From sequence record OZ346175.1: a DNA stretch of 64,000 nt; one strand, 5' to 3'. The translations under genes were made by a program, and so were the position numbers. The DNA is from a phage. Below the pieces are notes generated by a model. That model was not told the origin of the DNA. It did not search any database and saw only the letters and a program-made list of their open reading frames with translations. Positions 11,260-58,207 of the stretch are shown one piece after another (the first letter of the stretch is position 1; every line of letters starts with the position of its first letter).

Positions 11260-19275
<8,016 letters not shown>

Positions 19276-20472: not shown

Positions 20473-22818
20473 ATGGCAGATTACAAGTTGAGTGAATTAA
20501 ATTCAATTGATACAATTTGTTCAGACGACCTCCTTCATATCAGGGTTAAAAAGAGACCTGAAATGCTGGGTGATGAAGACCGTCGAATGACCTATCAAGA
20601 TTTCTTAGCATCTTTTAAACTTGAAAGATTTGTTCAGATTGCTGGCAGCACTATGACTGGTGACTTAGGGATTGTTAAGTTACTTTATGGTGGTAAGGCA
20701 GTCTTTGACCCAACAGGCTCTTCTGAGATTACTATTGGGGATGTTTTAAAGACTTTTAAAATTAACGCAAATGGTCTTAAACTAACTATTGCAGATGCTT
20801 CAAGGTCGGCAACTGTTTATCATACTCTGAATAAGCCAAGCCCTAATGAGCTTGGGATGAGAACTAATGAAGAGAATGATGCAAGATATGCAAGGTTGGC
20901 TGTTACAAACACATTTAACTCTAAACAGACCATTGTAGCAAATGGGGAACAGTTAACACTAAGGTCTCCTGTGAGTGGGGATAGTGCATACTCTGCTATT
21001 GTAGGTAGGGATGCAAGTAATGAAAAAACTTGGGCTATTGGGAACCTGATTAGGGGTAGTCTTGATGTTCAAATCGAGAGTAAATTAGGTTCCATCCTCA
21101 CTCTAGGCACGGCTGCTTCTTTTAATAGGTCTTTATCAATCAATGGTCAAGTGCAACCCTCTGACTTCTCTAACTTAGATGCTAGATATTTTACTCAGAC
21201 AGCAGCTAATCGGAGATTTGCACAGTTAACTGGTAATAATACCTTTAGTGGTGCAAATGTGTTTAATGGCTTTAACACAATTAAACGTAATGGTGAAGTG
21301 TTAAGGTTGCAAAATTCATCAGTTAGCCAGCCATTGTACATCAAGGCTATTGACTCTTCTGGTGCTAACAGGTGGTATGTTGGATGCGCCAACGGCGGTG
21401 ATGATGTATCACTAGAGAATTACAAAACTGGTGGTAAACTCACTATTGGTTCAAATGCCGCTATCAATACAACACTAAAAATCACTGGTCAAGTTCAACC
21501 TACAGATTGGACTAACATTGACTCTAGATACATTCCAGCAGCAACATTAAGTACAATTGCAAGAACTAATGCAAGTAACACGTTCACTGCAAAGCAGGTT
21601 ATTAAAACTGATGGTGAAGCTCTTATGTTACAAGGAAAGACAACCGCAGCACTTTACATTAGAGGTAAGGACTATGATGGAACGAATAGGTGGTATGTTG
21701 GTAATAACAGTGAGAGTGACACTCTTAATGTATATAACTATAAAACTGGTAAAACCCTAAGCATTGGTTCCCAAGTAGAAATTAATGCAACACTAAAAAT
21801 CACTGGTCAAGTACAACCTAGCAACTGGTCTAACTTAGATGCTAGATACTTCACTCAGGCAGCAGCTAATCGGAGATTTATGTATGCAGGTTCTACAGGA
21901 GAAGCTACAGAGCAGAATGCAGATGGTGTGGCATGGAACGCTAAAACAGGCTTATATAATGTAACCTCAACAAATGCTGGTTACACAGCACTTGTGTTTC
22001 AAATGTATCAGGGGGTGACCTCTTCTACTGCCTGTGCGCAATTAAAGTTCCAGTATAAAAACGGTGGAATGTGGTACAGAACATCTGTAGATAGTAAAGG
22101 TTTTGAAGCTAAGTGGTCTAAGGTTTACACAGAGGCTCAGAAACCAACCCCTTCAGAGCTTGGTGCATACACTAAAGCAGAAACTAACCAGAAGATTGCA
22201 CAGGCAGTAAGTGACTCTACAGACCTTAACAAAATCTATCCAGTAGGCATTGTAACGTGGTTTAACAGTAATGTTAACCCTAATACAGTACTGCCTGGTC
22301 TAACTTGGACGTACCTCAACAATGGTGTTGGTAGAACTATCAGAATTGCAGCAGCAAATGGTTCAGATGTTGCTACAACTGGTGGTTCAGACTCTGTGAC
22401 GTTAGCTGTTGGTAACTTACCTTCGCACACGCACAGTTTTTCTGCGACTACCTCATCGTTTAACTACGGAACAAAAAACACTAACACGACTGGTGCTCAC
22501 GCTCACTCTGTAAGTGGCTCTACTTCATCTGCTGGTAACCACAACCATTCCATTTCGTGGATTGGTCAGAACTCTACACACTACTCTGGTGGTGGTGGTG
22601 GTAGAATTGGTGTGGGGCCGGGGTACACTGATGCAGGTGGTGCTCACACCCACACAATCTCTGGTACTGCTGCTTCTGCTGGTAACCATGCTCACAGTGT
22701 AGGTATCGGTGCTCACACTCATACAGTTAGTGGTAACACTGGTGGTACAGGTTCTGGTTCAGCATTTAGTGTTACTAACCAGTTCTACAAGTTAATGGCT
22801 TGGGTAAGAACTGCTTAA
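20473..22818 (+). CDS. long tail fiber protein with internal tandem repeats and His-x-His C-terminal domain
   Basis: 781 aa; three ~110 aa repeats; collar-like segment; six HxH motifs; C-terminus ...[22 protein letters not shown] paralogous to upstream fiber. Confidence 0.8.
20908..21900 (+). repeat. intragenic tandem repeats (3 units of ~330 bp) within tail fiber gene
   Basis: Near-identical 49-mer TAACTTAGATGCTAGATA(T/C)TT(T/C)ACTCAG(A/G)CAGCAGCTAATCGGAGATTT at 21171-21219 and 21831-21879; AAAAATCACTGGTCAAGT(T/A)CAACCT at 21476 and 21795. Confidence 0.7.
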
Positions 22819-26095: not shown

Positions 26096-26395
26096 TTAGT
26101 CTGCCAACCTTAAATTGAAATTAACACCAAATTTTTCACATACTTCCAACATATACTCAAGTGAAACATTCCCAGTGAGGTGGATTATGTTGGATACACG
26201 AGCTTGAGAGATACCACAAATTTTAGCAACTTGCTCTTGAGAAAGACCTCTGGATTTAATCTCTCTCTTAAAACGATGTGCAACGAAGTCTCTCATTTCG
26301 TCTACATCCATTGGACAAATATAACTCTCCATTTCAGCCTCTCTATCAGCCTCCCAATCATCTTGTGGGGCATAAGGGTCAAAAACCTCATTCAT
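26096..26395 (-). CDS. XRE-family helix-turn-helix DNA-binding protein
   Basis: HTH segment LSQEQVAKICGISQARVSNI; start set at internal ATG 26395 (track start 26425 is TTG). Confidence 0.6.
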   Translation of the reverse strand: MNEVFDPYAPQDDWEADREAEMESYICPMDVDEMRDFVAHRFKREIKSRGLSQEQVAKICGISQARVSNIIHLTGNVSLEYMLEVCEKFGVNFNLRLAD

Positions 26396-26600
26396 CTTTC
26401 TTCTTCCGTTTGCGTGAAGTGTCAATCAATGAATCTATGTTTGTAGCTCTAACCTTTTCACGTTCATCGTTAAGATAATCATCAAGAGCCTTTTCAATCT
26501 GTGAATCATCTTGACAGATGACTGTAAAGACTGTAAAGCCATCTGTATCATCAATTATCTTACCATAACCGCTTCTGGGATGTAACTTTTTAAGAGCCAT
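26388..26600 (-). CDS. hypothetical protein
   Basis: 70 aa ORF, co-directional. Confidence 0.4.
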   Translation of the reverse strand: MALKKLHPRSGYGKIIDDTDGFTVFTVICQDDSQIEKALDDYLNDEREKVRATNIDSLIDTSRKRKKKDE

Positions 26601-26985: not shown

Positions 26986-27385
26986 AATAACCTCAAAGTT
27001 ATATTAAATTTTGTATTACATTGAGTATAAAAATAAGCTATAACACCTGACTTGTCAACAGATTTTATAGCTTATTTGGCAGATTTTTTATAAGGCTACT
27101 GCCATCCTTCCATACCCTACCTTACCACACCCAACCATACCTAACCAAACTACACCATACAATACCTTATTAAAAGACCCTCTTAAAGACCTTTTAAAAA
27201 GGTAAGTCTCATTTTAATGTAGATGAGACTAACTACCCATACCAAACAGCACCGCACTATGCCTTACCCCACCTCACCGAGCCTCGCCCCACATCACTTA
27301 AAAAACCCTTTTCAAAGACTCTTAAGTGATGTTGGTGAGTACCCGTTGGTTTATGCTGCTCAGTATACTCACCAAATTTTCTATG
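26986..27385. other. ~400-bp non-coding island with hairpins and CA-rich degenerate repeats
   Basis: 11-bp inverted repeat ATAAGCTATAA/TTATAGCTTAT (27033-27075); palindrome CCTTTTAAAAAGG; inverted repeat CATCACTTAA/TTAAGTGATG (27289-27334); CA-rich tracts 27103-27172 and 27230-27290. Confidence 0.5.
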
Positions 27386-29733: not shown

Positions 29734-29924
29734 TACTCAATGTCAATAAGTTCTTGTGCAATGCTTTTCAGATTACCTTTCAAGAAAACCTTCTCAGAAC
29801 CTGAAAGAGATGAATTGTCAATTAACCTGTTCATTCTCTCAAACAACTTCTGCTTACGGTTCTTGATAGTTTCCTTTGAAGCGCCTTTCATCATCGCTGC
29901 ATGGGTTCTTCCACGATGGCTCAT
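29715..29924 (-). CDS. hypothetical protein
   Basis: 69 aa ORF with AGGAGG SD; TTGACAAGGTG motif ~50 nt upstream. Confidence 0.5.
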   Translation of the reverse strand: MSHRGRTHAAMMKGASKETIKNRKQKLFERMNRLIDNSSLSGSEKVFLKGNLKSIAQELIDIEYWRHQK

Positions 29925-29975
29925 AAGTCCTCCTATACAAGATATTGTATAAGGTACTCTTCCCTGAGCACCTTG

Positions 29976-30503
29976 TCAACTTAGTTTTGCAAACTCTCCG
30001 TGGAGTTTAATAGCAGCTTCACAGTAAGCTTTATGGGCTTCTTCAGGTGTGTCATGGTAACCTAAAAACATCTTCTTACCTTTATAACTTATCTGTGCGA
30101 CCCACTTACCAGACTTCTTCTTCAGGCTTACACCCTTATAGCCTGATTTATTGGTGGATAGTTTGCTTTTATTCCAAGCACTTTGGTAGTCATCTGCTTC
30201 TCTTAAGTTTACAATCCTGTTATCAAGGGAGTCTCCATTAATATGGTCAATAACACCTTTCGGCAACCTACCATACATGTACAGCCATGCGAGTCTGTGT
30301 GCTTTATGTGCTTTCTTGTCAAAATAGATAGTAATCTGCTTATGACCAGTTGAGTCAATCTGGATGCTCCCCGCTACCTGTCCTGCGTACTGACTATTAA
30401 AAACTTTAACAGCCTTTGAGTCGCCCTCTCTACGAAGCCAAGTAAAGACCCCTGTTTCGGGGTCATAGTGTAGTAGTTCCTTTAAACGTTCTTTTGTAAT
30501 CAT
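29976..30503 (-). CDS. HNH homing endonuclease with AP2-like DNA-binding domain
   Basis: HNH segment VIDHINGDSLDNRIVNLREA; AP2-like SGYKGVSLKKKSGKWVAQISYKGKKMFLGYHDTPEEAHKAY; start set at ATG 30503 by conservation with paralog at 40374. Confidence 0.8.
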   Translation of the reverse strand: MITKERLKELLHYDPETGVFTWLRREGDSKAVKVFNSQYAGQVAGSIQIDSTGHKQITIYFDKKAHKAHRLAWLYMYGRLPKGVIDHINGDSLDNRIVNLREADDYQSAWNKSKLSTNKSGYKGVSLKKKSGKWVAQISYKGKKMFLGYHDTPEEAHKAYCEAAIKLHGEFAKLS

Positions 30504-30513
30504 TTTGTCACCA

Positions 30514-31070
30514 TTAATGCACTTCCAACCACGATTTACCAACCTTTGCTGTACCAGTTACAAGTGTTTCTTTCCTCAAACCTAAGTTTTTTGAAGCTTG
30601 TCCATACATCCAGTCAGCAATTGCTTTCATATCATGTGTCATACCCTCTGGACATTCCCAACTATTTTCATCGTGATATGCCAGAAGTAACCTTGCTCCG
30701 ATAGCTGGTTTTCGAGCATTCAGTTTTGTCAGGCCATCTTCACAGGCTTTTCTTGCTGCTAGGTTGATGGCCTCATTCTGAATCTGTGCTTCCGAACTCA
30801 TCAGGAGGTAGTTCAGTAGTTTATGTGGAGATTTGCACCATATCCATGCTCCAGCGACCCTGATATAACCACCTTTAGCAATTGAAGAATTCTTCCCAAA
30901 AACCTCTTCCAGAGCCTTTTTAGACGCCTTAAAATCGGCTTCTAAGCTATCAAGTAACTTCTTAATCTTTGGCAGACGCATATAGTAAGTTTGTTTAGTT
31001 AATGCACCTTCCTCTGTAGAAGCTGCCTTAATGGTTTTGGCAAACTTCTCATCACCTGCACCGAACAATA
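30514..31070 (-). CDS. DNA polymerase (family A) exon 2, C-terminal portion
   Basis: Begins LLFGAGDEK (motif B continuation, cf. T7 YGFLYGAGDEK) and contains motif C LLAYHDENSWECP; in-frame TGA 3 codons upstream of first sense codon. Confidence 0.8.
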
Positions 31071-31338
31071 CATCTGGTCAATACACTCGCAAGGTGTACC
31101 AGTTCTCTTATGAACTTCTCCGCATTTCTACGGAGTGTCGGACTATATCACGTAGTAGTAATACTACCGTTGCACTTGGGAATGGTCATTGGCTTACCAC
31201 CCTACTCTACTCAGTTCATACGTTAAGTATGCTTTTCGATAGTCTCTGAACGTTCCTCTTAAGAGGCTTCGCTGCTGATTACCATATCTTTACAGACTTA
31301 GGCTTCCAGCAATTCACAACGTTTTACATGCGCCACTG
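31071..31338 (-). ncRNA. group I self-splicing intron (ORF-less) within DNA polymerase gene
   Basis: On - strand RNA: 5' exon ends ...AUGCGU pairing with IGS GCGCAU (U.G at splice site); core elements P-like UUGCUGGAAG, Q AAUCAGCAGCG, R GUUCAGAGACUA, S GAUAUAGUCC; terminal G; splicing restores ...AKNGIYA-LLFGAGDEK. Confidence 0.75.
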
Positions 31339-33481
31339 ACGCATAAATGCCATTTTTGGCTTTCTTACGACCTTTTGTAATCTCGTGGAGAAGTTCCTCA
31401 TCCTGTGTCTCCCTACAACGAACAATATCTTCTTCCTTGTTCAGACCAAAGTAAATACTGTTCAGTGTATGCGCATCAGTCCCTGTGTAGACTTCATAGA
31501 GGTCGTTCTCAGCATCATAACGAAGATACTTGTCAGTTTCTGGATTAAGGTGCTTATCAAGATGTTTGCAATAATATCTCCCATCTTCTTGCTTGGTAAA
31601 TTCTACTGACTCTTTACCTTCAGTTACTGCTTTAGTGAACTCTTTATCACCCATAAAGTTACACAGTAAAACAAGCTGTGCAGAGTTCTGGTCAACAGAA
31701 ACAATGTTAGTCCCCTCTTCACAAATCCACACTGCCCTCATAGGTGCTCCATAGACAGCAGCACCAGACGGTACGTTTACAATACCATATTGTGTCATAC
31801 GTCCAGTTGAAGTACCAAACACCATTGCACCAGCACTAAGGCGACCATCAGGACGAATCTGGTTCAACCAACCTTTTTCATCATCCTTTGAGTTCTCAAT
31901 AGTTCTGCGTCGGTGCATCAAAGTATAGTACTTAGCAATCTTCTGTCCAAGCTCACCTTCAATCGTATCATAAGATGATTCAGTAAGTTTTGGTGAAGTA
32001 CGGATTAAGCAAGGCTCAAGCAAATCTGTGTACTTCTTCACAGACCAGTTATGCTCAATGTACTGTACACCTTCATGTTCAACATAACTCAAACCACACC
32101 GCTCAACCATTTCCTGCCACTTAGGATGTTTTGTAATCATCTTTTTATTGTCTTTGAAACGACAAACTTTGACAGGGCGACCATCTGAATCTTTCTTGTA
32201 GTTCCAGTCATCTGGAATCCAACCAACTGATTTCAAGTAGTCTTTAACAACTGCTACCTGAGTCATATGAGAAACTTCAAACTCAATTGGTGTATATGGT
32301 GCATCAATCAAACCTGTGTAGCGACTTGACTCAAGTTCAAAGTGATTGACAACGTGACTGTTATAGTACTTCACAGTCTTGACTGTTTTTACTGGTTTCC
32401 AGTCTTTGCATTTTTTGCCAATCTTTGCATTCAACTCGTTGCAGATTGCACGAGCATCCTTCATCGCTACAAAACCCTCTTTGTACTCTTCACCAGTTAC
32501 AGAGTTGGTTGGTGTATAGCAATTTCTCTTTTCAATGTTAAAAATCTTTGTAGTTGGCTTACCAAATGGCTTGATTTCATATGTCTGCATCTCACCATTA
32601 CGTACCTGCTGACGATACTTTGTCTTAGGGTACTTGGTAATTCTTTTCAGTCCATCTGCATGACCAAATGCTTCAACATACTCATTCCAAGCTTTTGCAA
32701 ACTCTTCTCCAGTGACTTTACCTTTGGTCTTAATAGTTGGAGGTAGATGTGGTTCAACCTCTGAAGCAAGCTCATTAGTCAACTTGTCAAGCTCCTTTAC
32801 ATGGAACTCCATAAGCTCTTTATCAGCTTTCCAACCATTGATAGCTTGTTGACTCATCCAGAAAGATGTTTCTTTAGCTCGCATGTAAGTTTCATAAGTG
32901 TCTATGCCACACTTCTTAAGCTTGAGATACTCGTTATCAAGTGCCCGTTTAGTTTTGGCGTTAATACGGATATCTTCTACAACACGAGTGAAGATTTCTG
33001 CATTCCACACACCCCAATGCTCAATCTCTGGCTTACGAACACCAACACGAGCACCCCATGCAGCCAAGCCATGAGCACCTTTATAACCCTTTGGAGTTGG
33101 TCTATCCATCCACTGAACACGAGACTGGATAAGAGAATCCTGAAAGAAATTACTCCACGGCTTACACTTTGGATTATCAAAGTTCCATAAATCAGGTGCA
33201 ATGTGATTAAAAACCCACCAGTCATAACCGAGACCGTTATGGATGCAAAGACGTTTTGCCTTTAACGCAAATTCAACACCTTCACGTAAGCCACCCTTAA
33301 TGTACTTGGTATACTTGTGACCGAGGATAGGTTCATCCGTAAAGACCCATACAGGTGGCTCTTCATCGTCAGATTTATAGTCTGCGAAAGCCATTACGTG
33401 CACTTTAGTGAACTCAAGGAGTAAACCATCAGTTTCTGTATCACCAACTAAATGTAAGTTTTTAAAATCTACGTTTTCCAT
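31339..33481 (-). CDS. DNA polymerase (family A) exon 1, 3'-5' exonuclease and N-terminal polymerase domains
   Basis: Exo I motif LVGDTETDGL; ends in motif B start GRKKAKNGIYA; start set at ATG 33481 with GAGGGAG SD (track start 33511). Confidence 0.85.
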
Positions 33482-33738
33482 TTTTACTCCCTCTAAAATC
33501 ATTAACCTCATACATTACTGCAAAAAATTATAAAAAGCAAGTTGACAATGCACTTGACAAGGTGTTAATCTTTGCGAAGTGGGTTTTTACTTAAAAGGTT
33601 ACTTAACAGTTTAACTATACAGATACTTTAAAACTCTTAAAAGATTATTTAATAGCTTTTAAAAAGCTTTAAAGTATAACGTATAGAATACGTTAAGATA
33701 AAAGATTAAAACTTAATAGTTACTTAAAAGAGGCTTAC

Positions 33739-34161
33739 ATGCAGAAAATGTTTGTTCACCCAGACATAGCTGACTTTGTTAGAGCTTTGCAGAAGTTGGA
33801 AGAACTTGACATTGCTGCTCAACGGGAATATGCTCACCATCACAGGAGAATGGTTGATATACAACATGAAATAGAGTTATCTGAAAACTATGAAGATGAC
33901 TTAAAATGCTCTGTGTTTGAGCATATGAAAGATGTTGCTACAGCGAGACGTAAAGCTAAAGACACAGTTGCTTTACTAGACTCTCTTAAAAAGAGGTTGC
34001 AAAGTGGTACAGACCTGTGTAATCTAGCGTCACTGATTAACGATGTTGAAACTTCTTGGGATAGGCACTATTATCCACGTTCTGAAAAGACACTTGACTT
34101 TTCTTCATCCGAAAACTTAAAATGTTCTAGAAAGAAACTTAACCAACTGAGAGAGAAATAA
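33739..34161 (+). CDS. hypothetical protein
   Basis: 140 aa ORF, SD AAAAGAGG, first gene of rightward block. Confidence 0.55.
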   Translation: MQKMFVHPDIADFVRALQKLEELDIAAQREYAHHHRRMVDIQHEIELSENYEDDLKCSVFEHMKDVATARRKAKDTVALLDSLKKRLQSGTDLCNLASLINDVETSWDRHYYPRSEKTLDFSSSENLKCSRKKLNQLREK

Positions 34162-35977: not shown

Positions 35978-37955
35978 AGGTCGTAAATTGAAAGAGGCTG
36001 GTCAGTTTGTTGGTCATTGCGCATGTCCACGTTGTGGTTCATCAGATGCTGGTTCAATCTATCACCATGACGATGATTCTTATTCAATGACTTGCTTTAG
36101 TTGTAACAAAGGTTTCCCAGAGTGGGATTTTGATAAAGGACAAATCGTGAGCACTTATTCTACTGGTTCAGACAATAAAAACCGTACTTTCCGTGGAATG
36201 GATTTAGACGATGTAAAAGAAAACCTAGAAGCAATGGACTTGAAAGATAGGAAGATTCCTGCAAAAGTTCTTGAGCGTTTGGGTATTAAGGTTGACATTG
36301 ACAGTGATGGTGAAATTGACGCACATTTCTACCCAACTTACAAACGTAATGAAGATGGTAAGCTAGAACATGTTGGCTACCGTGTTCGTCACCGTTACCC
36401 AGAAGACCATCCAAAAGAGCACCTACGTGGTAAGCTAAAAGACTTTTCTGGTGGTGTTGGAGACATTAAAGGTGAACTGGCAATGTTTGGTTCATGGATT
36501 GCTCCAGAAGGTGGTAACCGTCTATTCATCTGGGAAGGTGAGATGGAATGTGCGACAGCAATCTACATGACCTCTTTGGCGATTAAAGATAAGTCTCGTC
36601 GTAAGAATTACTGTCACGTATCTGTCCCATCGGGTGCAAACATTAAGTCTATCAAAGACAACTATCAGTACATCACATCATTTGATGAGATTTACTTGTG
36701 CTTTGATAATGATGAAGCAGGTGCTAAAGCTACCAAAGAGGCTGCTGGCATTCTCCCTATCGAGAAGGTTCGTTTATTCCAGTATCCAGAAGGTGTAAAA
36801 GACCTTAACGAATGGTGGACAAAGTTCTATAAAGAGAAAGATACAGTTCTGGAAGGATTTAAGCAGCGTATCTACAATGCACCTCGTTACTGTCCTGCTG
36901 GTATCAAGAACTTCGCAGATGGTTTTGAGGCAATGAAGAATCGTGGTCAGATTCCATTGATTCCTTTCCCAGAATCATTCGGAGATTTGAACAGACTGAC
37001 TTATGGTGGTTATGGACTAGGTGAGATTACAACTCTGGCAGCACCATCTTCAGTGGGTAAATCAGCATACACTCGTGAAATGATTTACACAGCTTGGAAA
37101 GAAACCGATTACAATATTGGTGTAATTCCTGTAGAAGATACCTATGAAGAGTTGATGGAGATGCTCTGTGCAATCCACCTGAGCAAGCAGATTTCTGAGA
37201 TTCCTTATGACGAACGTGATTGGGATGAATTGAAGGGAGCGCACGCAGAACTATCTAAAGGTCGTCGTATCCACATCGTAGACCATCAAGGGGCAATTGA
37301 CCAAGATAACTTACTGGAGTTTGTTGACTATCTTGTTAATAGCTTAGACTGTAAGATTATTATTCTTGACCCTATTACGTTGGCTCTGTCACGTTCAGAT
37401 ACGGATGAAGAGGAAGTTTTGTCTGAGCTATTGCGTCGTTGCAAACGCTACCAGTATGCACAAGTGAACGTCTGTCACGTTCGTAAGAGTGCAGGTGGTC
37501 AGAAGGCTAACTCTGAAGGTGGAGATATCTCTGAAGAGGATATTAAAGGCTCTGGTGCGTATTTCCAGATTTCTATGAACAACATTCTGTTAATGCGTAA
37601 CAAGGTTGACCCAGACCCTGTTAAGAAAAACTTGACAAAAATCAAGCTAACTAAATGTCGTCGTCACGGTAAGTCAACGGGTATTGCTGGTCATACTTGG
37701 TACAATCCAGATACAGGACGCCTCATCAAAGCATCTGGTTGCGGAGTTGACATTGATGGTGCAGCAGAAAATATTCGCCAACAGTTTGGTATTGGTGAAG
37801 CTGAAGACCATTACGATGACTCTTTGCCACATTATGAGGATGAAGTGTTTGACCGTGAGACTGGTGAAGTCTATACTGAAGAGCAGCGTCAAAGCTCAAC
37901 GATTCCACCTGTATTAAGTGAGGATGCAGATGACTGCCCATTCGAAACTGAGTGA
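35964..37955 (+). CDS. DNA primase/helicase (T7 gp4-like)
   Basis: N-terminal zinc ribbon CPRCGSSD...CFSCN, central primase region, C-terminal helicase Walker A AAPSSVGKSAYT. Confidence 0.85.
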   Translation: MLMSKGRKLKEAGQFVGHCACPRCGSSDAGSIYHHDDDSYSMTCFSCNKGFPEWDFDKGQIVSTYSTGSDNKNRTFRGMDLDDVKENLEAMDLKDRKIPAKVLERLGIKVDIDSDGEIDAHFYPTYKRNEDGKLEHVGYRVRHRYPEDHPKEHLRGKLKDFSGGVGDIKGELAMFGSWIAPEGGNRLFIWEGEMECATAIYMTSLAIKDKSRRKNYCHVSVPSGANIKSIKDNYQYITSFDEIYLCFDNDEAGAKATKEAAGILPIEKVRLFQYPEGVKDLNEWWTKFYKEKDTVLEGFKQRIYNAPRYCPAGIKNFADGFEAMKNRGQIPLIPFPESFGDLNRLTYGGYGLGEITTLAAPSSVGKSAYTREMIYTAWKETDYNIGVIPVEDTYEELMEMLCAIHLSKQISEIPYDERDWDELKGAHAELSKGRRIHIVDHQGAIDQDNLLEFVDYLVNSLDCKIIILDPITLALSRSDTDEEEVLSELLRRCKRYQYAQVNVCHVRKSAGGQKANSEGGDISEEDIKGSGAYFQISMNNILLMRNKVDPDPVKKNLTKIKLTKCRRHGKSTGIAGHTWYNPDTGRLIKASGCGVDIDGAAENIRQQFGIGEAEDHYDDSLPHYEDEVFDRETGEVYTEEQRQSSTIPPVLSEDADDCPFETE

Positions 37956-38364: not shown

Positions 38365-38393
38365 TTGACAATAGAGTATCAACAAATTAGAAT
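38365..38393 (+). promoter_or_regulatory. sigma70-like promoter TTGACA-N17-TAGAAT
   Basis: -35 TTGACA 38365-38370, -10 TAGAAT 38388-38393, ~35 nt upstream of SSB gene. Confidence 0.55.
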
Positions 38394-40396: not shown

Positions 40397-40865
40397 AGAG
40401 TACCTACATTATGACCCCGAAACAGGGGTCTTTACTTGGATTAAGAAATCTGCTAGACACACAAAAATTGGCTCTGTTGCAGGTACAAACTTAAGAGGGT
40501 ATACCAGAATTTATTTGTTTGGTAAGGGCTATTATGCACATACCCTAGCCGTTCTGTATATGGATGGATACCTACCTGAGTGTGTTGACCATAAAAATCA
40601 TGTAACACTAGACAATCGCTGGGTAAATCTTAGGGCATGTACGTTATCAGAGAACCAATGTAATAGGTTGCTCAATAAGAACAATAAATCAGGTGTTAAA
40701 GGTGTGTACTACAAAAAACAGTATGGTAAGTGGTCTACACAGATAACTTTTAAGAAGAGGGTCTACTTCTTCGGCAACTATGACACTATTGATGAAGCAG
40801 CAGAGGTTGTAAATAGGGAACGTCAACGTTTACACAAAGAGTTTGCTAATAAAGGTGATGAATGA
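40374..40865 (+). CDS. HNH homing endonuclease with AP2-like domain (paralog of 29976-30503)
   Basis: Shared N-terminus with paralog (LKEYLHYDPETGVFTW), HNH segment VDHKNHVTLDNRWVNLR, AP2-like SGVKGVYYKKQYGKWSTQI. Confidence 0.8.
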   Translation: MLTQQTLKEYLHYDPETGVFTWIKKSARHTKIGSVAGTNLRGYTRIYLFGKGYYAHTLAVLYMDGYLPECVDHKNHVTLDNRWVNLRACTLSENQCNRLLNKNNKSGVKGVYYKKQYGKWSTQITFKKRVYFFGNYDTIDEAAEVVNRERQRLHKEFANKGDE

Positions 40866-47148: not shown

Positions 47149-49293
47149 ATGAACAAAGTACAGATTATTAAAAAGAATGGCTCACTCGAAGAACCTGATA
47201 TCAAAAAAGTTTTAGCAGCAGTCACAAAGTCAGCTAATAGGGTTGGGTATAAAGAACTTCCACCAGATGTTACCCAAGCTCTTGAGTCAGCATTTATGAG
47301 GATTCTGGTAAAATCTACTAAGCAGAATAATTTACTCATTTCAGTAAATGATATTCACAGTATTGTTGAGGGTGCTTTGGCAGAAGTCAATCACGAGATT
47401 TATGAGTCTTACTCAACATATAGAAATTACCGTAAAGAGGTTGCTCAAAATTGGGACGAGCTTTACCAAAAGACTAGGGATACACTCTTCTTAGGTGACC
47501 GTGAAAATGCTAACTTTGACAGTAGTTTAATTTCTACAAAAGGCTCAATTATTCGTGGTTACTTGACTAAAGAAATCTTTAAACAGTACCATTTAACACC
47601 AGAGGAACTTGAAGCCATTGAAAAAGGGTTTATCTACATCCATGACTTAAGAGACCTAATTTTTGGTGGTATCAACTGTTGCCTGTTTGACATCGGCAAA
47701 GTACTGAAAGGTGGCTTTGAAATGTCTGGTATCGAATATTGTGAACCAAAGTCTGTGCTGTCAGCCTTACAGGTTATTGGTGATGTAGTTCTTTCAGCAA
47801 CTGCACAGCAATTTGGTGGCTTTACTTTAGCAGAGATTGATAAGGTACTTGTGCCGTATGCTAAAAAATCTTTAGTGTACCACTCAGAGAAAGCTGAAGA
47901 GTACGGAATCCCTAAAGAGCAACACTATAATTACGTAATGGAGCAATTACAGAATGAGTTAACACAAGGTTTCCAATCTCTTGAAATGAAACTCAACACT
48001 GTTCCTTGCAGTCGCGGTGATTTTGCATTTACTACTCTGACATTTGGCCTGTTGGAACCAGATATGCACAATGAAGATAACCGTCTTCAGTTTATGATTG
48101 CTAATACAATCCTTAATGTAAGGATGAACGGGCAAGGGAAAAGCAAAAAACCTGTTGTTTTTCCTAAACTTGTGTATATCTATGAAGAGACAAGACATAA
48201 ACTTGATGTATGCCAAGCAAGGTTGTTTGAAAAAGCTATTGAGTGTTGCTCTAAAGCGATGTATCCAGATTTCTTAAGTGTATCTGGTCATGGTGCTGTA
48301 GCAGATGCTTTTGAGCGTTCTGGTAAGGTGATTTCACCGATGGGTTGCAGAGCTTTCTTGTCTCCATATCTTAACGAGAATGGGGAAGAGTTCTATGTAG
48401 GTCGTGCTAACATTGGTGCTGTATCTTTGAACTTGCCAATGATTTACCAGTATTCTAAAGAGAATGGTTTAGATTTCTGGAAAGAGCTTGATAAGTACCT
48501 AGAGATGATTCGCAGCTTCCACAAGAAACGCTACGAAATGATTGCTAATATGCCAGCAAGCTCTAACCCTCTTGCATTCACACAAGGTGGCCTGTACAAA
48601 GGGACTAAGAAATCTACCGACAAGGTTGGCTGGGATATCGTGAAGTCCTTCACAGCTTCTTTTGGAGTTACTGCGCTTGATGAGCTATCTGTTCTTGCTG
48701 AAGGTAAACGACTTCATGAAGTTGGGAGCTATAGTTTTGCATACGATGTTCTGGCATACATCAACATGAAGACTGAAGAGTTTAAAAATGAAGATGGCTT
48801 CTTATATGCAGTCTATGGCACTCCAGCAGAATCACTTTGTGGAACTCAGCTAAAACAGTTCAGAGATATGTTTGGCGTTATCAAAGGCGTTTCTGACAAG
48901 GAATACTTTACAAACAGTTTCCATATGAATGTTGCAGCAGATATTACACCATTTGAGAAGCAGGACTTAGAAGAGCCATTCTTCCATATCTGTAGAGGTG
49001 GCAGAATCCAGTATGTCAGGGTAGCTAACCCAGAAAACTTAACAGCACTTAAGAGTTGTATTACAAGAGGGATGTTGAAAGGTTTTTATCAGGGACTTAA
49101 CTTTGACCTAGCAATTTGTGAGCATTGTGGTAGCAGACCAAAGGCTGATGTTGAAGAATGTGAGGTTTGCCATTCACATGATATCTCTGTGATTAACAGG
49201 GTGTGTGGGTATCTTGGGTGGACTAAGATTAAAGGTGAATCACGAATGAACGATGCAAAAATTGCTGAGATTCGTGATAGAGTCTCTATGTAA
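47149..49293 (+). CDS. nrdD: anaerobic ribonucleoside-triphosphate reductase (class III)
   Basis: C-terminal glycyl-radical motif RVCGYLGW and zinc-ribbon-like CEHCG...CEVCH; 714 aa. Confidence 0.9.
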   Translation: MNKVQIIKKNGSLEEPDIKKVLAAVTKSANRVGYKELPPDVTQALESAFMRILVKSTKQNNLLISVNDIHSIVEGALAEVNHEIYESYSTYRNYRKEVAQNWDELYQKTRDTLFLGDRENANFDSSLISTKGSIIRGYLTKEIFKQYHLTPEELEAIEKGFIYIHDLRDLIFGGINCCLFDIGKVLKGGFEMSGIEYCEPKSVLSALQVIGDVVLSATAQQFGGFTLAEIDKVLVPYAKKSLVYHSEKAEEYGIPKEQHYNYVMEQLQNELTQGFQSLEMKLNTVPCSRGDFAFTTLTFGLLEPDMHNEDNRLQFMIANTILNVRMNGQGKSKKPVVFPKLVYIYEETRHKLDVCQARLFEKAIECCSKAMYPDFLSVSGHGAVADAFERSGKVISPMGCRAFLSPYLNENGEEFYVGRANIGAVSLNLPMIYQYSKENGLDFWKELDKYLEMIRSFHKKRYEMIANMPASSNPLAFTQGGLYKGTKKSTDKVGWDIVKSFTASFGVTALDELSVLAEGKRLHEVGSYSFAYDVLAYINMKTEEFKNEDGFLYAVYGTPAESLCGTQLKQFRDMFGVIKGVSDKEYFTNSFHMNVAADITPFEKQDLEEPFFHICRGGRIQYVRVANPENLTALKSCITRGMLKGFYQGLNFDLAICEHCGSRPKADVEECEVCHSHDISVINRVCGYLGWTKIKGESRMNDAKIAEIRDRVSM

Positions 49294-49301
49294 AACTTGA
49301 C

Positions 49302-49342
49302 AAGGTGGTGTGGGTCTTGGTAGGCTTACATCACCTTTTTAT
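49302..49342 (+). terminator. putative terminator / stem-loop after nrdD
   Basis: AAGGTG...CACCTT inverted repeat followed by TTTTTATT. Confidence 0.4.
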
Positions 49343-49446
49343 TGGGTGTTAGATATGGCAGATAGTATTGTTGGGTTGTTCATAGGTTCTGTCTTACTAG
49401 GGTTCTTTTTAGGACTCTCCTATTGTGAGTTGAGAGATAAGTTAAA

Positions 49447-49647
49447 ATGTTTAAAATACCAAAAACGTTGATACACATACTCCACATACTAATCTTCTTC
49501 TTTGGGGTTAGTGTTATGGTATGGGGTTTTTCAGACCCACAATGGAGTTTCGCATATCATGGTCAGATGGATTTATGGTCATGCTTCAAACCATTTTTAG
49601 GGTTAGCTATAGCATTCAGTGCATTGCCAACTAAGGTGAAATTATGA
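49447..49647 (+). CDS. small membrane protein
   Basis: 66 aa with hydrophobic segment ILHILIFFFGVSVMVWGF. Confidence 0.45.
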   Translation: MFKIPKTLIHILHILIFFFGVSVMVWGFSDPQWSFAYHGQMDLWSCFKPFLGLAIAFSALPTKVKL

Positions 49648-50039: not shown

Positions 50040-50335
50040 GTAAAACAATTCGAAGAAAAGGTTTAAAGAACGTTCACGGACTCTATGAGTGGAGAAATGA
50101 GGTACGTAACAGAGAAAATGCTTCAGATGTCTACTTCCATTCTGATATGATGTCCAGAAAAGGTGGCTCTTATGACTTTACAAGTCAGCCTTGTAGAGAG
50201 ATTAAGAAGGTTACTAAACGTCTTACAAGAACACAAATCAGGCAGCTTTCTAAGACATCCTTCTTAGATGAGGACTTTGACATTGACAGCAAGTCTCCAA
50301 AGAAAGCTGCTCAGAACACTTATATGTATTGGTGA
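50036..50335 (+). CDS. hypothetical protein
   Basis: 99 aa ORF. Confidence 0.5.
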   Translation: MSKTIRRKGLKNVHGLYEWRNEVRNRENASDVYFHSDMMSRKGGSYDFTSQPCREIKKVTKRLTRTQIRQLSKTSFLDEDFDIDSKSPKKAAQNTYMYW

Positions 50336-53449: not shown

Positions 53450-55231
53450 ATGACTAAATCGCTTTACGCAGTACCAGCAGGTTTAAACGCAGATGCTTAC
53501 AAATCTGGTCATGTTTACCAGTACCCTAGTGCAACAGAATACTTGATGTTCAACCTGACACCACGTAGTGACAAATGGTTTAACAGCCCCTTAGCAATTG
53601 ATGGTGTAGTAGCTTTTGGTATTCAACGTTTCGTTAAAGATTACCTGATAGACCACTGGAACGCCACTTTCTTTGAACGTGATAAAAAAGAAGCAGTTGA
53701 CGAAATCTTAGAAGTCATGAATGGTGTTCTGGGTAAAGATGCTATTGGTCGAGAGCATTGGGAAGCACTTCACGATTTAGGCTATCTACCAGTTGAAGTA
53801 TACGCTGTAGAAGAAGGTACAGTTGTTCCTATGCGTGTTCCAATGATTGTCTTCCAGAACACTGTTTCAGGTTTCCATTGGGTAGCAGGTTATCTGGAAG
53901 ATGCTTTCTCTGCTGAGATTTGGAAGACTTGCACCATTGCAACTATTGCATTGCACTACAAACGTATCTGTAAGAAGTGGGCTGACCTTACTTGCGACAA
54001 TGACTTACATTTACCTTATCAGTGCCATGACTTTGCTATGCGTGGTATGTCCGGCTTTACCGATGACGCATTTAATGCTGTAGGTCACTTAACCAGCTTT
54101 AAAGGAACTGATAGCTTCCCTGCTGTATACACGGCTAAACGCATCTATGGACAGTCTTACCCAATTTCTGATATTGGTAGTTCTGTACCAGCCACTGAAC
54201 ACTCTGTAATGTGTGCAAACATTGCTTGGGAAGGTGGTAATGAATTGATTGAAGAGGAAAGACGCTTTAAAGGTGAGTTGCAAACCTTCCGTCGTTTCTT
54301 AACAGAAACTTACCCAACTGGTATTGCAAGTATTGTTTCAGATACTTATAACTTCTGGAGAACTGTGTCAGAAATCTTACCAGCACTTCGTAAAGAAATT
54401 ATGGAACGTGATGGTAAGCTGGTAATTCGCCCTGACTCTGGAGACCCTGTACATATTGTCACAGGCTATAAAGCAATCCACTTAGAGTGTGCTAAGAAGG
54501 CTTATTATGAGCACATAAGCAAGCTGGAAGCTAGTGACACAATGTTGAATGCTGTTCTGAACATGAAGCTTGAAAACATCAACTATGGTATTGCTGGATG
54601 GCTACTGTCAGAAGGCTACGAAATGGTTGTTGACAGAGAAGACTTTGAAGTTGCTGATACAGTGATGTTGAAAAATGCTTATATGGTTGGCTCTGCAAAC
54701 GTTGTAACACGTCCTGTAGCAGAGATTGATGGAGCTATTAAGACCCTGTACAACATCTTCGGAGGGACTATTAACTCTAAAGGGTTTAAGGTACTGGATG
54801 AGCACATCGGCCTTATCTATGGTGACTCTATCACGCTGGAACGTGCAAACGAAATCCTGAAGCGTCTGTATGAAATGGGTTTTGCAAGCTCTAACGTAGT
54901 GTTTGGTGTAGGCTCTTACACTTACCAGTACATGACTCGTGACACCTTTGCATTTGCTGTCAAAGCAACTCTTGCAAGCATTGGTGGTAAAGAGATTATG
55001 CTTGCAAAAGACCCTAAAACAGATAGTGGTGTTAAGAAATCTGCCTTTGGTGGTGTAGCACCTATGTGGGATGGTGATAAGCTGAAAGCTGTAGATGGCT
55101 ATGGATTCCAGAGTTTTGCAGATGTACTTGACCACCAAGCTTGTGCTTTACGTTTAGTCTTTAGCGACTCTGAGCAGTTCGGTTATACAACTCTTGGAGA
55201 TATTCGAAATAATATTGACAAGCAGCTTTAA
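53450..55231 (+). CDS. nicotinamide phosphoribosyltransferase-family protein (NAMPT-like; candidate Namat)
   Basis: N-terminal DAYKSGH (cf. NAMPT DSYKVTH); 593 aa. Confidence 0.8.
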   Translation: MTKSLYAVPAGLNADAYKSGHVYQYPSATEYLMFNLTPRSDKWFNSPLAIDGVVAFGIQRFVKDYLIDHWNATFFERDKKEAVDEILEVMNGVLGKDAIGREHWEALHDLGYLPVEVYAVEEGTVVPMRVPMIVFQNTVSGFHWVAGYLEDAFSAEIWKTCTIATIALHYKRICKKWADLTCDNDLHLPYQCHDFAMRGMSGFTDDAFNAVGHLTSFKGTDSFPAVYTAKRIYGQSYPISDIGSSVPATEHSVMCANIAWEGGNELIEEERRFKGELQTFRRFLTETYPTGIASIVSDTYNFWRTVSEILPALRKEIMERDGKLVIRPDSGDPVHIVTGYKAIHLECAKKAYYEHISKLEASDTMLNAVLNMKLENINYGIAGWLLSEGYEMVVDREDFEVADTVMLKNAYMVGSANVVTRPVAEIDGAIKTLYNIFGGTINSKGFKVLDEHIGLIYGDSITLERANEILKRLYEMGFASSNVVFGVGSYTYQYMTRDTFAFAVKATLASIGGKEIMLAKDPKTDSGVKKSAFGGVAPMWDGDKLKAVDGYGFQSFADVLDHQACALRLVFSDSEQFGYTTLGDIRNNIDKQL

Positions 55232-55245
55232 AAGTATATGATAAG

Positions 55246-55267
55246 AGGCTCCTACGGGAGCCTTTTT
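55246..55267 (+). terminator. rho-independent terminator
   Basis: AGGCTCC-TACG-GGAGCCT hairpin plus TTTTT. Confidence 0.7.
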
Positions 55268-58177: not shown

Positions 58178-58207
58178 TTGACAAGGGGCTTCAAAGCCCC
58201 TTAGAAT
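58178..58207 (+). promoter_or_regulatory. sigma70-like promoter TTGACA-N18-TAGAAT with palindrome in spacer
   Basis: -35 TTGACA 58178-58183, spacer AGGGGCTTCAAAGCCCCT (inverted repeat), -10 TAGAAT 58202-58207. Confidence 0.5.

Follow-up and report, generated by a model that had tools for sequence, protein, structure and literature searches.

Location and copies of the motif

The 64,000-nucleotide stretch of sequence record OZ346175.1 that was analysed here, referred to below as the window, belongs to a Felix O1-like phage of the genus Felixounavirus (subfamily Ounavirinae). Its genes lie on the plus strand up to ~23.4 kb, on the minus strand at 23.5–33.5 kb, and on the plus strand again from 33.7 kb. 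Because the gene strands switch from minus to plus there, the gap at 33512–33738 is a divergent control region, with the DNA polymerase gene on one side and the gp97 homologue on the other. The gap holds one of three exact copies of an 11-mer, TTGACAAGGTG, which consists of the sigma-70-type -35 hexamer TTGACA and five flanking bases (AGGTG) and is the subject of this report. The 6-kb stretch around this copy is matched at ~93–97% identity by 263 phage records, nearly all of them from Felix O1-like myoviruses of E. coli, Salmonella, Shigella, and Citrobacter; a position in the Felix O1 genome (AF320576) is approximately the window position plus 29,990. Our verdict is that the 11-mer is a real, conserved promoter-cassette signal, mostly of a familiar kind.

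The exact copies are designated A (in the divergent region), B, and C (Table 1). A one-mismatch copy, TTGACAAGGGG, lies at 58178–58188 on the plus strand (site D), and a related sequence, TTGACAAGTCAGGTG, lies at 27058–27044 on the minus strand (site E). A preliminary description of this DNA had listed the same five copies as intergenic and upstream of gene starts. All are where it placed them, TTGACA is perfect in each, and the downstream ATGs are at 33739 (A), 49355 (B), 29924 (C), 58252 (D), and 26985 (E); the -10 regions do differ between copies, as it also stated. Enumeration of the motif over the window recovered these copies together with three unlisted one-mismatch copies at 11504, 32346, and 32780 (-), which lie in coding DNA within long open reading frames (ORFs) and look like chance.

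The chance expectation of ~0.03 first quoted for the repeat is valid only for an 11-mer chosen in advance. There are 168 distinct 11-mers that occur at least three times in the window, compared with 51–80 in Markov-model random sequences, and with 72 TTGACA hexamers present the probability that some five-base extension recurs three times is ~0.10; the recurrence by itself is therefore not significant. Its context makes the motif non-random, namely the intergenic position, the co-orientation with genes, and the conservation across genera. Under a crude ORF mask, which misses site B because a spurious ORF covers it, ~5% of the window is intergenic, and the TTGACA hexamers that touch intergenic DNA comprise nine co-oriented with genes versus none anti-oriented. 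For three of 9–15 intergenic hexamers to share one 5-mer has a probability of ~2e-4 to 8e-4. The idea that three unrelated TTGACA sites carry the same next five bases by pure chance can appeal to the 168 recurrent 11-mers and to the P of ~0.10, but it has to contend with this intergenic, co-oriented placement, with the retention of the exact motif across genera at orthologous positions whose neighbouring bases are variable, and with a fourth exact copy at the gp40/41 promoter in most Felixounavirus genomes examined. The comparative data already disfavour it, and we hold it to be extremely improbable.

Another recurrent 11-mer, TAAAAGGTCTT, has five copies, mostly in coding DNA, and was judged to be chance. 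Binding-site consensuses of other sigma factors and host regulators (sigma-54, -32, and -E, CRP, Fis, IHF, DnaA, and marbox) were compared by eye only and gave no convincing match, and no description of the 11-mer itself was found in the literature searched.

Table 1. Coordinates of the cassettes and of the candidate regulator gene in the window
Feature	Position	Strand	Description
Site A, box 1 (TTGACA)	33542–33547	+	18 bp upstream of TAATCT
Site A, box 2 (exact 11-mer)	33554–33564	+	Downstream member of tandem TTGACA-N6-TTGACA, in promoter spacer
Site A, putative -10 hexamer TAATCT	33566–33571	+	TAGTCT in Moogle
Site B, exact 11-mer	49297–49307	+	Begins 3 nt after nrdD stop codon (49291–49293)
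Site B, hairpin	49302–49337	+	16 pairs, -24 kcal/mol, z -5.7; then TTTATT
Site C, exact 11-mer	29969–29979	-	TGA stop of HNH ORF (29978–29976) inside TTGACA
Site C, hairpin region	29946–29974	-	AAGGTGCTC-AGGGAA-GAGTACCTT at 29974–29951
Site D, putative rIIA–rIIB intergenic promoter TTGACA-18-TAGAAT	58178–58207	+	AAGGGGCT/AGCCCCTT hairpin fills spacer; z -3.2
Site E, TTGACAAGTCAGGTG region	27024–27075	-	Long hairpin then TTTTT; -17.8 kcal/mol, z -4.3
Promoter-like TTGACA-16-TATGAT with terminator	55215–55266	+	Abuts strong terminator at 55243 (AAGAGGCTCC...GGAGCCTTTT)
Small Cro/C1-type HTH_3 regulator, candidate trans-acting factor	26096–26425	-	Pfam HTH_3 E 5.9e-10; PHROG 1373

A putative restart promoter within the predicted nrdD terminator

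Hairpins were assessed by folding energy, by z against shuffled controls, and by a terminator scan of the window; an Rfam scan of the whole window gave no match at any motif site, its sole match being a group I intron. Sites were compared with IMG/VR loci from a protein-anchored collection (31 loci for sites A, C, and E and 22 for B and D). This collection replaced an exact-pattern scan of IMG/VR with the site B loop 15-mer, which returned almost entirely chance matches (four of 120 loci were Felix-like) and was dropped.

At site B, a hairpin whose 5′ arm opens with the AAGGTG of the motif was also found by the terminator scan, and just the last A of TTGACA belongs to its stem. The hairpin is predicted to be the intrinsic terminator of nrdD, one that is absent from the terminator table of the Felix O1 genome paper (PMC3185647). 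The hexamer TAGGCT (49321–49326), at a distance of 18 bp from TTGACA, covers the final base of the loop and the beginning of the 3′ arm and is present in all 22 loci, and TTGACA probably acts as the -35 box of a putative restart promoter. The stem is well conserved, with 98% of cells paired across ten distinct sequences. Four pairs are altered on one side only (G.U/A-U), which fits a hairpin in the plus-strand RNA, and the 3′ arm shows a single change, an A>G in Felix O1 by which a U.G wobble arises. The 11-mer is mostly exact in these loci, with the uncompensated variants TTGACATGGTG in five and TTGACAATGTG in one.

The first ORF after site B (49355–49450, +) encodes a small hydrophobic peptide (MADSIVGLFIGSVLLGFFLGLSYCELRDKLKC...); in the old Felix O1 record the annotated ORF begins inside the hairpin instead.

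The cassettes at sites C, D, and E

Site C has a related architecture on the minus strand. The AAGGTG of the motif forms the 5′ arm of a nine-pair hairpin (-16.2 kcal/mol) whose z of -2.1 is weak, TACCTT lies 17 bp from TTGACA (TACCAT in two loci), and an SD (AGGAGG) and the ATG at 29924 follow. TATACA (29951–29946), 22 bp from TTGACA, is an alternative -10. We also considered and rejected AAGGTG as an alternative -35-like element 17 bp before TATAC(A/T), a spacing that fits C and does not fit A, B, or E. Across the loci the 11-mer is exact except for one TTGACAGGGTG, and the cassette as a whole is nearly invariant between flanks that change. Upstream lies the end of either an HNH gene, as in the window and many other genomes, or the DNA polymerase gene, whose stop codon the cassette directly follows in genomes without the HNH gene; the downstream gene comes in two versions.

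Site B has variable surroundings as well: in four of the 22 loci an HNH gene of 580 bp separates the nrdD stop from TTGACA, and the downstream flanks differ, so that both cassettes sit at gene-content boundaries between close relatives, including homing-endonuclease insertions. One could accordingly take the motif to be a recombination or homing-endonuclease target that marks the insertion points of mobile genes, as HNH genes lie directly upstream at C (in the window and many genomes) and at B (in four genomes) and both flanks of site C swap between genomes. Such a role seems to us highly improbable. The HNH proteins at B and C are unrelated, which rejects a single endonuclease family; the motif is equally kept in genomes without the insertions and at site A, where no insertion was seen within this clade; and recombination at cassettes, as in the phage elements compared below, is compatible with the explanation we prefer and is no alternative to it.

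Site D follows a TAA stop just upstream. The preliminary description listed it as a one-mismatch copy, which it is in the window; in the Moogle-like and Suspvirus phages the orthologous sequence is TTGACAGGGGCTGAAAAGCCCCTTAGAAT (TTGACAGGGGC) and the A of the motif is lost. The resemblance of site D to the 11-mer comes solely from TTGACA and a G-rich hairpin stem.

At site E the hairpin has the loop TTGACAAGT and the arms ATAAGCTATAA/TTATAGCTTAT with ATCTG/CAGGT. The AGGTG thus has yet another structural role here, because CAGGT pairs with ATCTG. Candidate -10 hexamers are TATTTT at 17 bp and TATACT at 23 bp from TTGACA, and the putative promoter would head the operon that contains the HTH_3 regulator gene listed in Table 1.

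Tandem boxes in the putative rightward early promoter

The 11-mer occupies a different position at site A, where another TTGACA box (box 1) precedes it by 12 bp and the 11-mer forms box 2. Box 1 is the probable -35 box, as judged from its spacing and from the single box that outgroup phages have at the orthologous position, and the annotated promoter in the GenBank record of phage ASO1B begins at this box. T33563 and G33564 of the 11-mer fall at -15/-14 and form the TGn of an extended -10, and its own TTGACA has no usable -10 at 16–19 bp, where the sequence reads AAGTGG. The divergent region is where early transcription begins according to a proposal in the Felix O1 genome paper, which found no promoter there (PMC3185647).

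In the 31 loci, box 1 is invariant, and box 2 is invariant apart from A>G at position 7 in one locus. The N6 between the boxes varies at four of six positions (ATGCAC, ATACAC, ATGTAC, ATGCGC, AATAAC, ATTCAC, AAGCAC, and AATCAC). After box 2 the loci read R-GGTG-K-TA[A/G]TCT, and TA[A/G]TCT is kept in all three genera.

The other divergent region, gp40/41, which is not part of the window, holds a fourth exact copy at the promoter called 'P41' in the Felix O1 paper; there, too, the 11-mer follows another TTGACA box at a distance of 12 bp. The sample comprised six usable Felix-like loci, the protein-anchored scan having been swamped by a common N-terminal motif, and the sequence in these Felixounavirus loci is TTGACA-AAGTAC-TTGACAAGGTG-TAGGCT, with AAGGAC in place of AAGTAC in one of them. 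The corresponding sequence is GGTA in Felix O1 itself and TTGACAACGTG-TAGCCT in Moogle.

Two further features lie in the ~160-nt leader downstream of site A, which contains repeated CTTAAAAG(G/A) motifs (33588–33612; 33591, 33637, and ~33725; ~21555–21660 in locus L002). One is a box that reads ACTTAACAG in the Felix phages, CTCTTTA(T/C)AG in Moogle, and CCTCTTAACAG in the Erwinia phages, and that resembles the boxA antitermination sequence (GCTCTTTAACAA). ACTTAAAAGGTT is common to this leader and to that of the paralogous gp40/41. Such an element could bear on read-through of many terminators. The other is a perfect 15-bp palindrome, AGCTTTTAAAAAGCT, at 33654–33668 (+), which is the same in Moogle and has one mismatch in SUSP1 (AGCTTTTAAGAAGCT); it may serve as an operator or belong to the promoter region of the leftward DNA polymerase gene. 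On the minus strand, a TATAGT at 33619–33614 is conserved. In 173 of 259 phage records the divergent intergenic region (33440–33760) has an identity of 99% or more, compared with ~93–94% for the surrounding 6 kb of coding DNA; this regulatory region is better conserved than the adjoining genes.

Conservation across genera

Mooglevirus retains the motif at the orthologous sites, and so do Suspvirus-like phages at the sites examined in them (A, B, and C). Citrobacter phage Moogle, which is ~80% identical to the window here, has the exact 11-mer at A, B, and C and an unchanged site E, with flanks that differ, and Suspvirus SUSP1 keeps the 11-mer at site A.

The orthologues found in the outgroups (A in Erwinia and Pectobacterium phages, C in Erwinia phages) are without AGGTG. 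In the Erwinia (Kolesnikvirus) and Pectobacterium phages, the orthologue of site A has one TTGAC(A/T) box 17–18 bp from TACATT, TAGGCT, or TATCCT (TTGACA-17/18-TACATT or TTGACA-17-TAGGCT), and the orthologue of site C in Erwinia-type loci is TTGACA-17-TATCTT. TTGACA.GGTG occurs nowhere in one complete Erwinia phage genome. Erwinia phage vEam_PM_27 does carry a tandem, TTGACA-TTCCAC-TTGACA-GGGGC-TAAAGT (locus L264, 38709–38745; record position 83709), near the right end of its record. The two-box layout matches that of site A, and the genus has neither the AGGTG extension nor the HTH gene. Because the tandem layout recurs at gp40/41 and in one Erwinia phage, the second box of site A seems to matter in its own right.

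Box 2 could on this basis be a second site for sigma-70 region 4, the domain that reads -35 boxes, offering a competing register, polymerase recruitment, or a second overlapping promoter, with the rest of the 11-mer meaningless apart from TTGACA and TG. It would agree with the 12-bp tandem at site A in three genera, at gp40/41 in Felixounavirus and Moogle, and in similar form in one Erwinia promoter; overlapping promoter-like signals are, moreover, often dense around real E. coli promoters. It is at odds with the lack of any TAnnnT 16–19 bp after box 2 at site A, with the finding of nothing consistent there across A, gp40/41, and the Erwinia case, and with the GG of AGGTG, which is also invariant at site A. 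We therefore see it as very unlikely.

Putative composite promoter and stem-loop cassettes

A TAnnnT hexamer lies 16–19 bp from TTGACA at B (18), C (17), D (18), and E (17, TATTTT), and at A from box 1 only. A stem-loop lies between or over the -35 and -10 elements at B, C, D, and E and is lacking at A; it is followed by a U-tract at B and by TTTTT at E. The order stop codon, -35, stem-loop, -10, SD, and ATG is found at B, C, and D. The 3′ arms of the hairpins mostly end in CCTT, the usual 'AAGG...CCTT(TTT)' terminator base, and this stem base accounts for the AAGG at B, C, and D. B and C then share only TG in addition to what follows from the architecture.

Taking these features together, we lean slightly towards the explanation that TTGACAAGGTG is a sigma-70-type -35 hexamer with five adjoining bases in a small family of related cassettes, forming part of a hairpin and restart promoter at B and C and a box within the spacer at A and gp40/41. 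At B and C, incoming transcripts (from nrdD at B and from the DNA polymerase or HNH gene at C) would meet the hairpin whose 5′ arm is AAGGTG, which at B would be a full intrinsic terminator. RNA polymerase would also bind TTGACA together with a weak -10 (TAGGCT or TACCTT), and initiation inside or just after the 3′ arm would yield new transcripts that lack the hairpin and read on. At site B we infer that a start 6–9 nt past TAGGCT falls in the 3′ arm, so that termination would be escaped. At A and gp40/41 the first box would be the working -35, the 11-mer would fill the spacer, and its TG would provide the extended -10. The identity of AGGTG among the sites most likely reflects common descent or recombination of cassettes together with a local preference for a G-rich 'AAGG...CCTT' stem base.

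The preliminary description had proposed an extended -35 element of a phage promoter class, or an operator. The perfect hexamer, the intergenic and co-oriented placement, and the conserved TAnnnT at 18 and 17 bp (B and C) agree with a promoter class; the absence of a fixed promoter position, with the motif in the spacer at A and gp40/41, does not. Nor is there support for the extension as part of a -35 element at B and C, where AAGGTG is the 5′ arm of the hairpin.

Several systems provide a comparison. Sigma-70-like promoters were predicted earlier for Felix O1 and relatives (PMC3185647; PMC4837284) and appear in the ASO1B record. The sites share with sigma-70 promoters (TTGACA-N17-TATAAT, TGn) the perfect TTGACA, 17–18 bp to TAnnnT, A-rich upstream DNA, co-orientation with genes, and, at site A, TG at -15/-14; they differ in their weak -10s (TAATCT, TAGGCT, and TACCTT), in the five extra conserved bases, and in the placement of the site A 11-mer in the spacer. 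With intrinsic terminators they share, at site B, the 16-pair hairpin of -24 kcal/mol with its T-run directly after the nrdD stop and G.U pairs that indicate plus-strand RNA, whereas TTGACA lies outside the stem except for its last A, C and D lack a U-tract, and A lacks a hairpin.

The closest layout that we compared is that of the promoter-early stem-loops (PeSLs) of the T4-type phages RB49, phi1, PST, and nt-1 (Arbiol et al. 2010, PMC2839356; Comeau et al. 2014, PMC4122927). PeSLs likewise have a stop codon, a sigma-70-like -35, a stem-loop between or over the boxes, a -10, an SD, and an ATG (PMC2839356; PMC4122927), their stem base is often 'A3-4G3...C3T3-4', and they lie at variable gene-content junctions. 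This layout fits the putative cassettes B, C, and D as well as the promoter-like sites at 38365 and 55215. The differences are that the present cassettes occur in Ounavirinae, that there are a handful of them rather than dozens, that site A is without a stem-loop, and that the PeSL -10 is near consensus while that of the Felix O1-like phages is weak. T4 middle promoters (a MotA box at -30 with a sigma-70 -10, and AsiA) would be an analogue for B and C if a phage factor binds the 11-mer; TTGACAAGGTG is, however, unrelated to the MotA box TGCTT, the -35 is intact here and absent in T4 middle promoters, and the position of the box is not fixed. The finding is best filed as probable sigma-70-type promoters in composite promoter and stem-loop cassettes, here in Ounavirinae, with a constrained second box at the early promoters that these comparisons leave unexplained. 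In the literature searched, we found neither the extended motif nor the tandem boxes nor the placement of a promoter within a terminator described for this subfamily.

A number of observations weigh against the cassette explanation. At A, B, and C the -10 hexamer agrees with TATAAT in just three of six positions, and all four exact copies, including gp40/41, have a weak -10, whereas promoters without AGGTG (TAGAAT, TATACT, and TATGAT) have five of six matches (P 0.005, with classes defined post hoc); these weak -10s beside exact copies hint at a shared extra function. The hairpins of C and D, having no U-tract, are not canonical terminators. Better TATAC(A/T) hexamers lie 22–23 bp from TTGACA at C and E, so that the -10 used there is uncertain. 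At site A, ten of 11 motif positions are invariant, compared with two of seven other spacer positions (Fisher P 0.013), and the extended -10 accounts for TG alone within this constrained 11-mer. No hairpin at site A exceeds shuffled controls on either strand (z -0.8 and +0.34), and RNA structure as the cause of the conservation there was considered and set aside, as nothing stood out on either strand. Finally, the literature searched contained no experimental transcription starts or ends for any Felixounavirus. Overall, our account is a sequence-based inference, and the signal it concerns is for the most part of a familiar kind.

The Felix O1 genome paper describes as unknown both how transcription passes through many terminators and how its timing is controlled (PMC3185647). 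Restart promoters built into hairpins would be a concrete proposal for the former, and the cassettes give a short list of possible regulator sites, foremost among them the constrained box 2 of the main early promoter. They also mark places of gene exchange, which is relevant to engineering these phages; Felix O1-like phages are widely used in Salmonella and E. coli typing, biocontrol, and therapy.

A possible phage-encoded reader of the motif

The constraint at site A invites a different explanation, in which the 11-mer (core TTGACA-R-GGTG) is read as a unit by a protein other than sigma-70, for example the HTH_3 protein, at an operator or activator site over or beside the -35. The regulon would then comprise the two divergent early promoters and the restart promoters after nrdD and DNA polymerase, and the outcome would be temporal control such as early shut-off. 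The HTH_3 protein scores 21.8 bits against the Pfam model of sigma-70 region 4, just under the cut-off of 24.1, and its best sequence match in the PDB is 8vd6_A, 'CAP REPEAT' (E 6e-12). Homologues are present in 259 records of the Felix/Moogle/Suspvirus clade and in no Erwinia or Pectobacterium phage record, and tblastn of a complete Erwinia phage genome gave no match.

Such a protein would explain why the 11-mer is constrained in a spacer position that sigma-70 geometry does not need and for which RNA structure gives no account, and it would suit the weak -10 hexamers that accompany the exact copies. Further points in its favour are the missing AGGTG at the outgroup orthologues found, the single Erwinia phage genome that lacks both TTGACA.GGTG and a tblastn match to the HTH protein, and the two motif positions relative to the -10, which differ by 11–12 bp, or about one helical turn. 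Temporal regulation is, in addition, called unexplained in the Felix O1 paper (PMC3185647). On the other hand, the 11-mer is without the dyad symmetry that dimeric HTH_3 proteins normally need, and its position is not fixed (~-36 to -25 at B and C, ~-24 to -14 at A and gp40/41). Variants at positions 7 and 8 are each confined to one site, and the other sites show no corresponding change in the genomes that could be compared. The co-occurrence of the HTH gene and AGGTG, both limited to this clade, amounts to a single clade split and is weak evidence, and the tandem box is independent of the HTH protein because an Erwinia phage without the HTH gene has one (TTGACA-N6-TTGACA-GGGGC-TAAAGT). The hairpin, moreover, already accounts for AAGG at B and C. 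We consider the operator explanation a tentative candidate that is unlikely to be right. Its more specific form, in which TTGACA-R-GGTG would be the site of a clade-specific phage factor such as HTH_3 and would mark a regulon of four promoters with deliberately weak -10s as the temporal switch of Felix O1-like phages, we regard as quite unlikely.

Other cassettes and minor observations

Hairpins directly after TTGACA(A), or enclosing the -10, are also found at 38365, 27389 (-), and 55215. The stem at 38365 shows a compensatory change between genera, from AGAGTA/TACTCT to GGAGTA/TACTCC. The promoter-like element at 55215 lies in the last codons of a 593-aa ORF that is homologous to a gene annotated as nicotinate/nicotinamide phosphoribosyltransferase in relatives; the unit at 55215–55266 is conserved across genera and looks like another terminator-plus-restart cassette.

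The group I intron (Rfam RF00028, 64 bits) is at 31118–31401 on the minus strand and divides the DNA polymerase gene into ORFs at 31298–33511 and 30514–31068, after which comes a free-standing HNH endonuclease ORF (29976–30542). Many related records carry the annotation 'DNA polymerase (x2)', and the gene is uninterrupted in Felix O1, ASO1B, and Moogle. Two paralogous HNH endonuclease genes, whose proteins are 42% identical, share an identical 23-nt sequence, GACCCCGAAACAGGGGTCTTTAC, at 30464–30442 (-) and 40413–40435 (+); it encodes YDPETGVFTW, could form a hairpin, and was flagged by the terminator scan. TTGACATTGACAG occurs twice on the plus strand (36292–36304 and 50277–50289), in both cases within a coding sequence whose reading frame gives the peptide D-I-D-S; neither copy has a -10 hexamer after it, and the repeat is probably a coincidence of codon usage.

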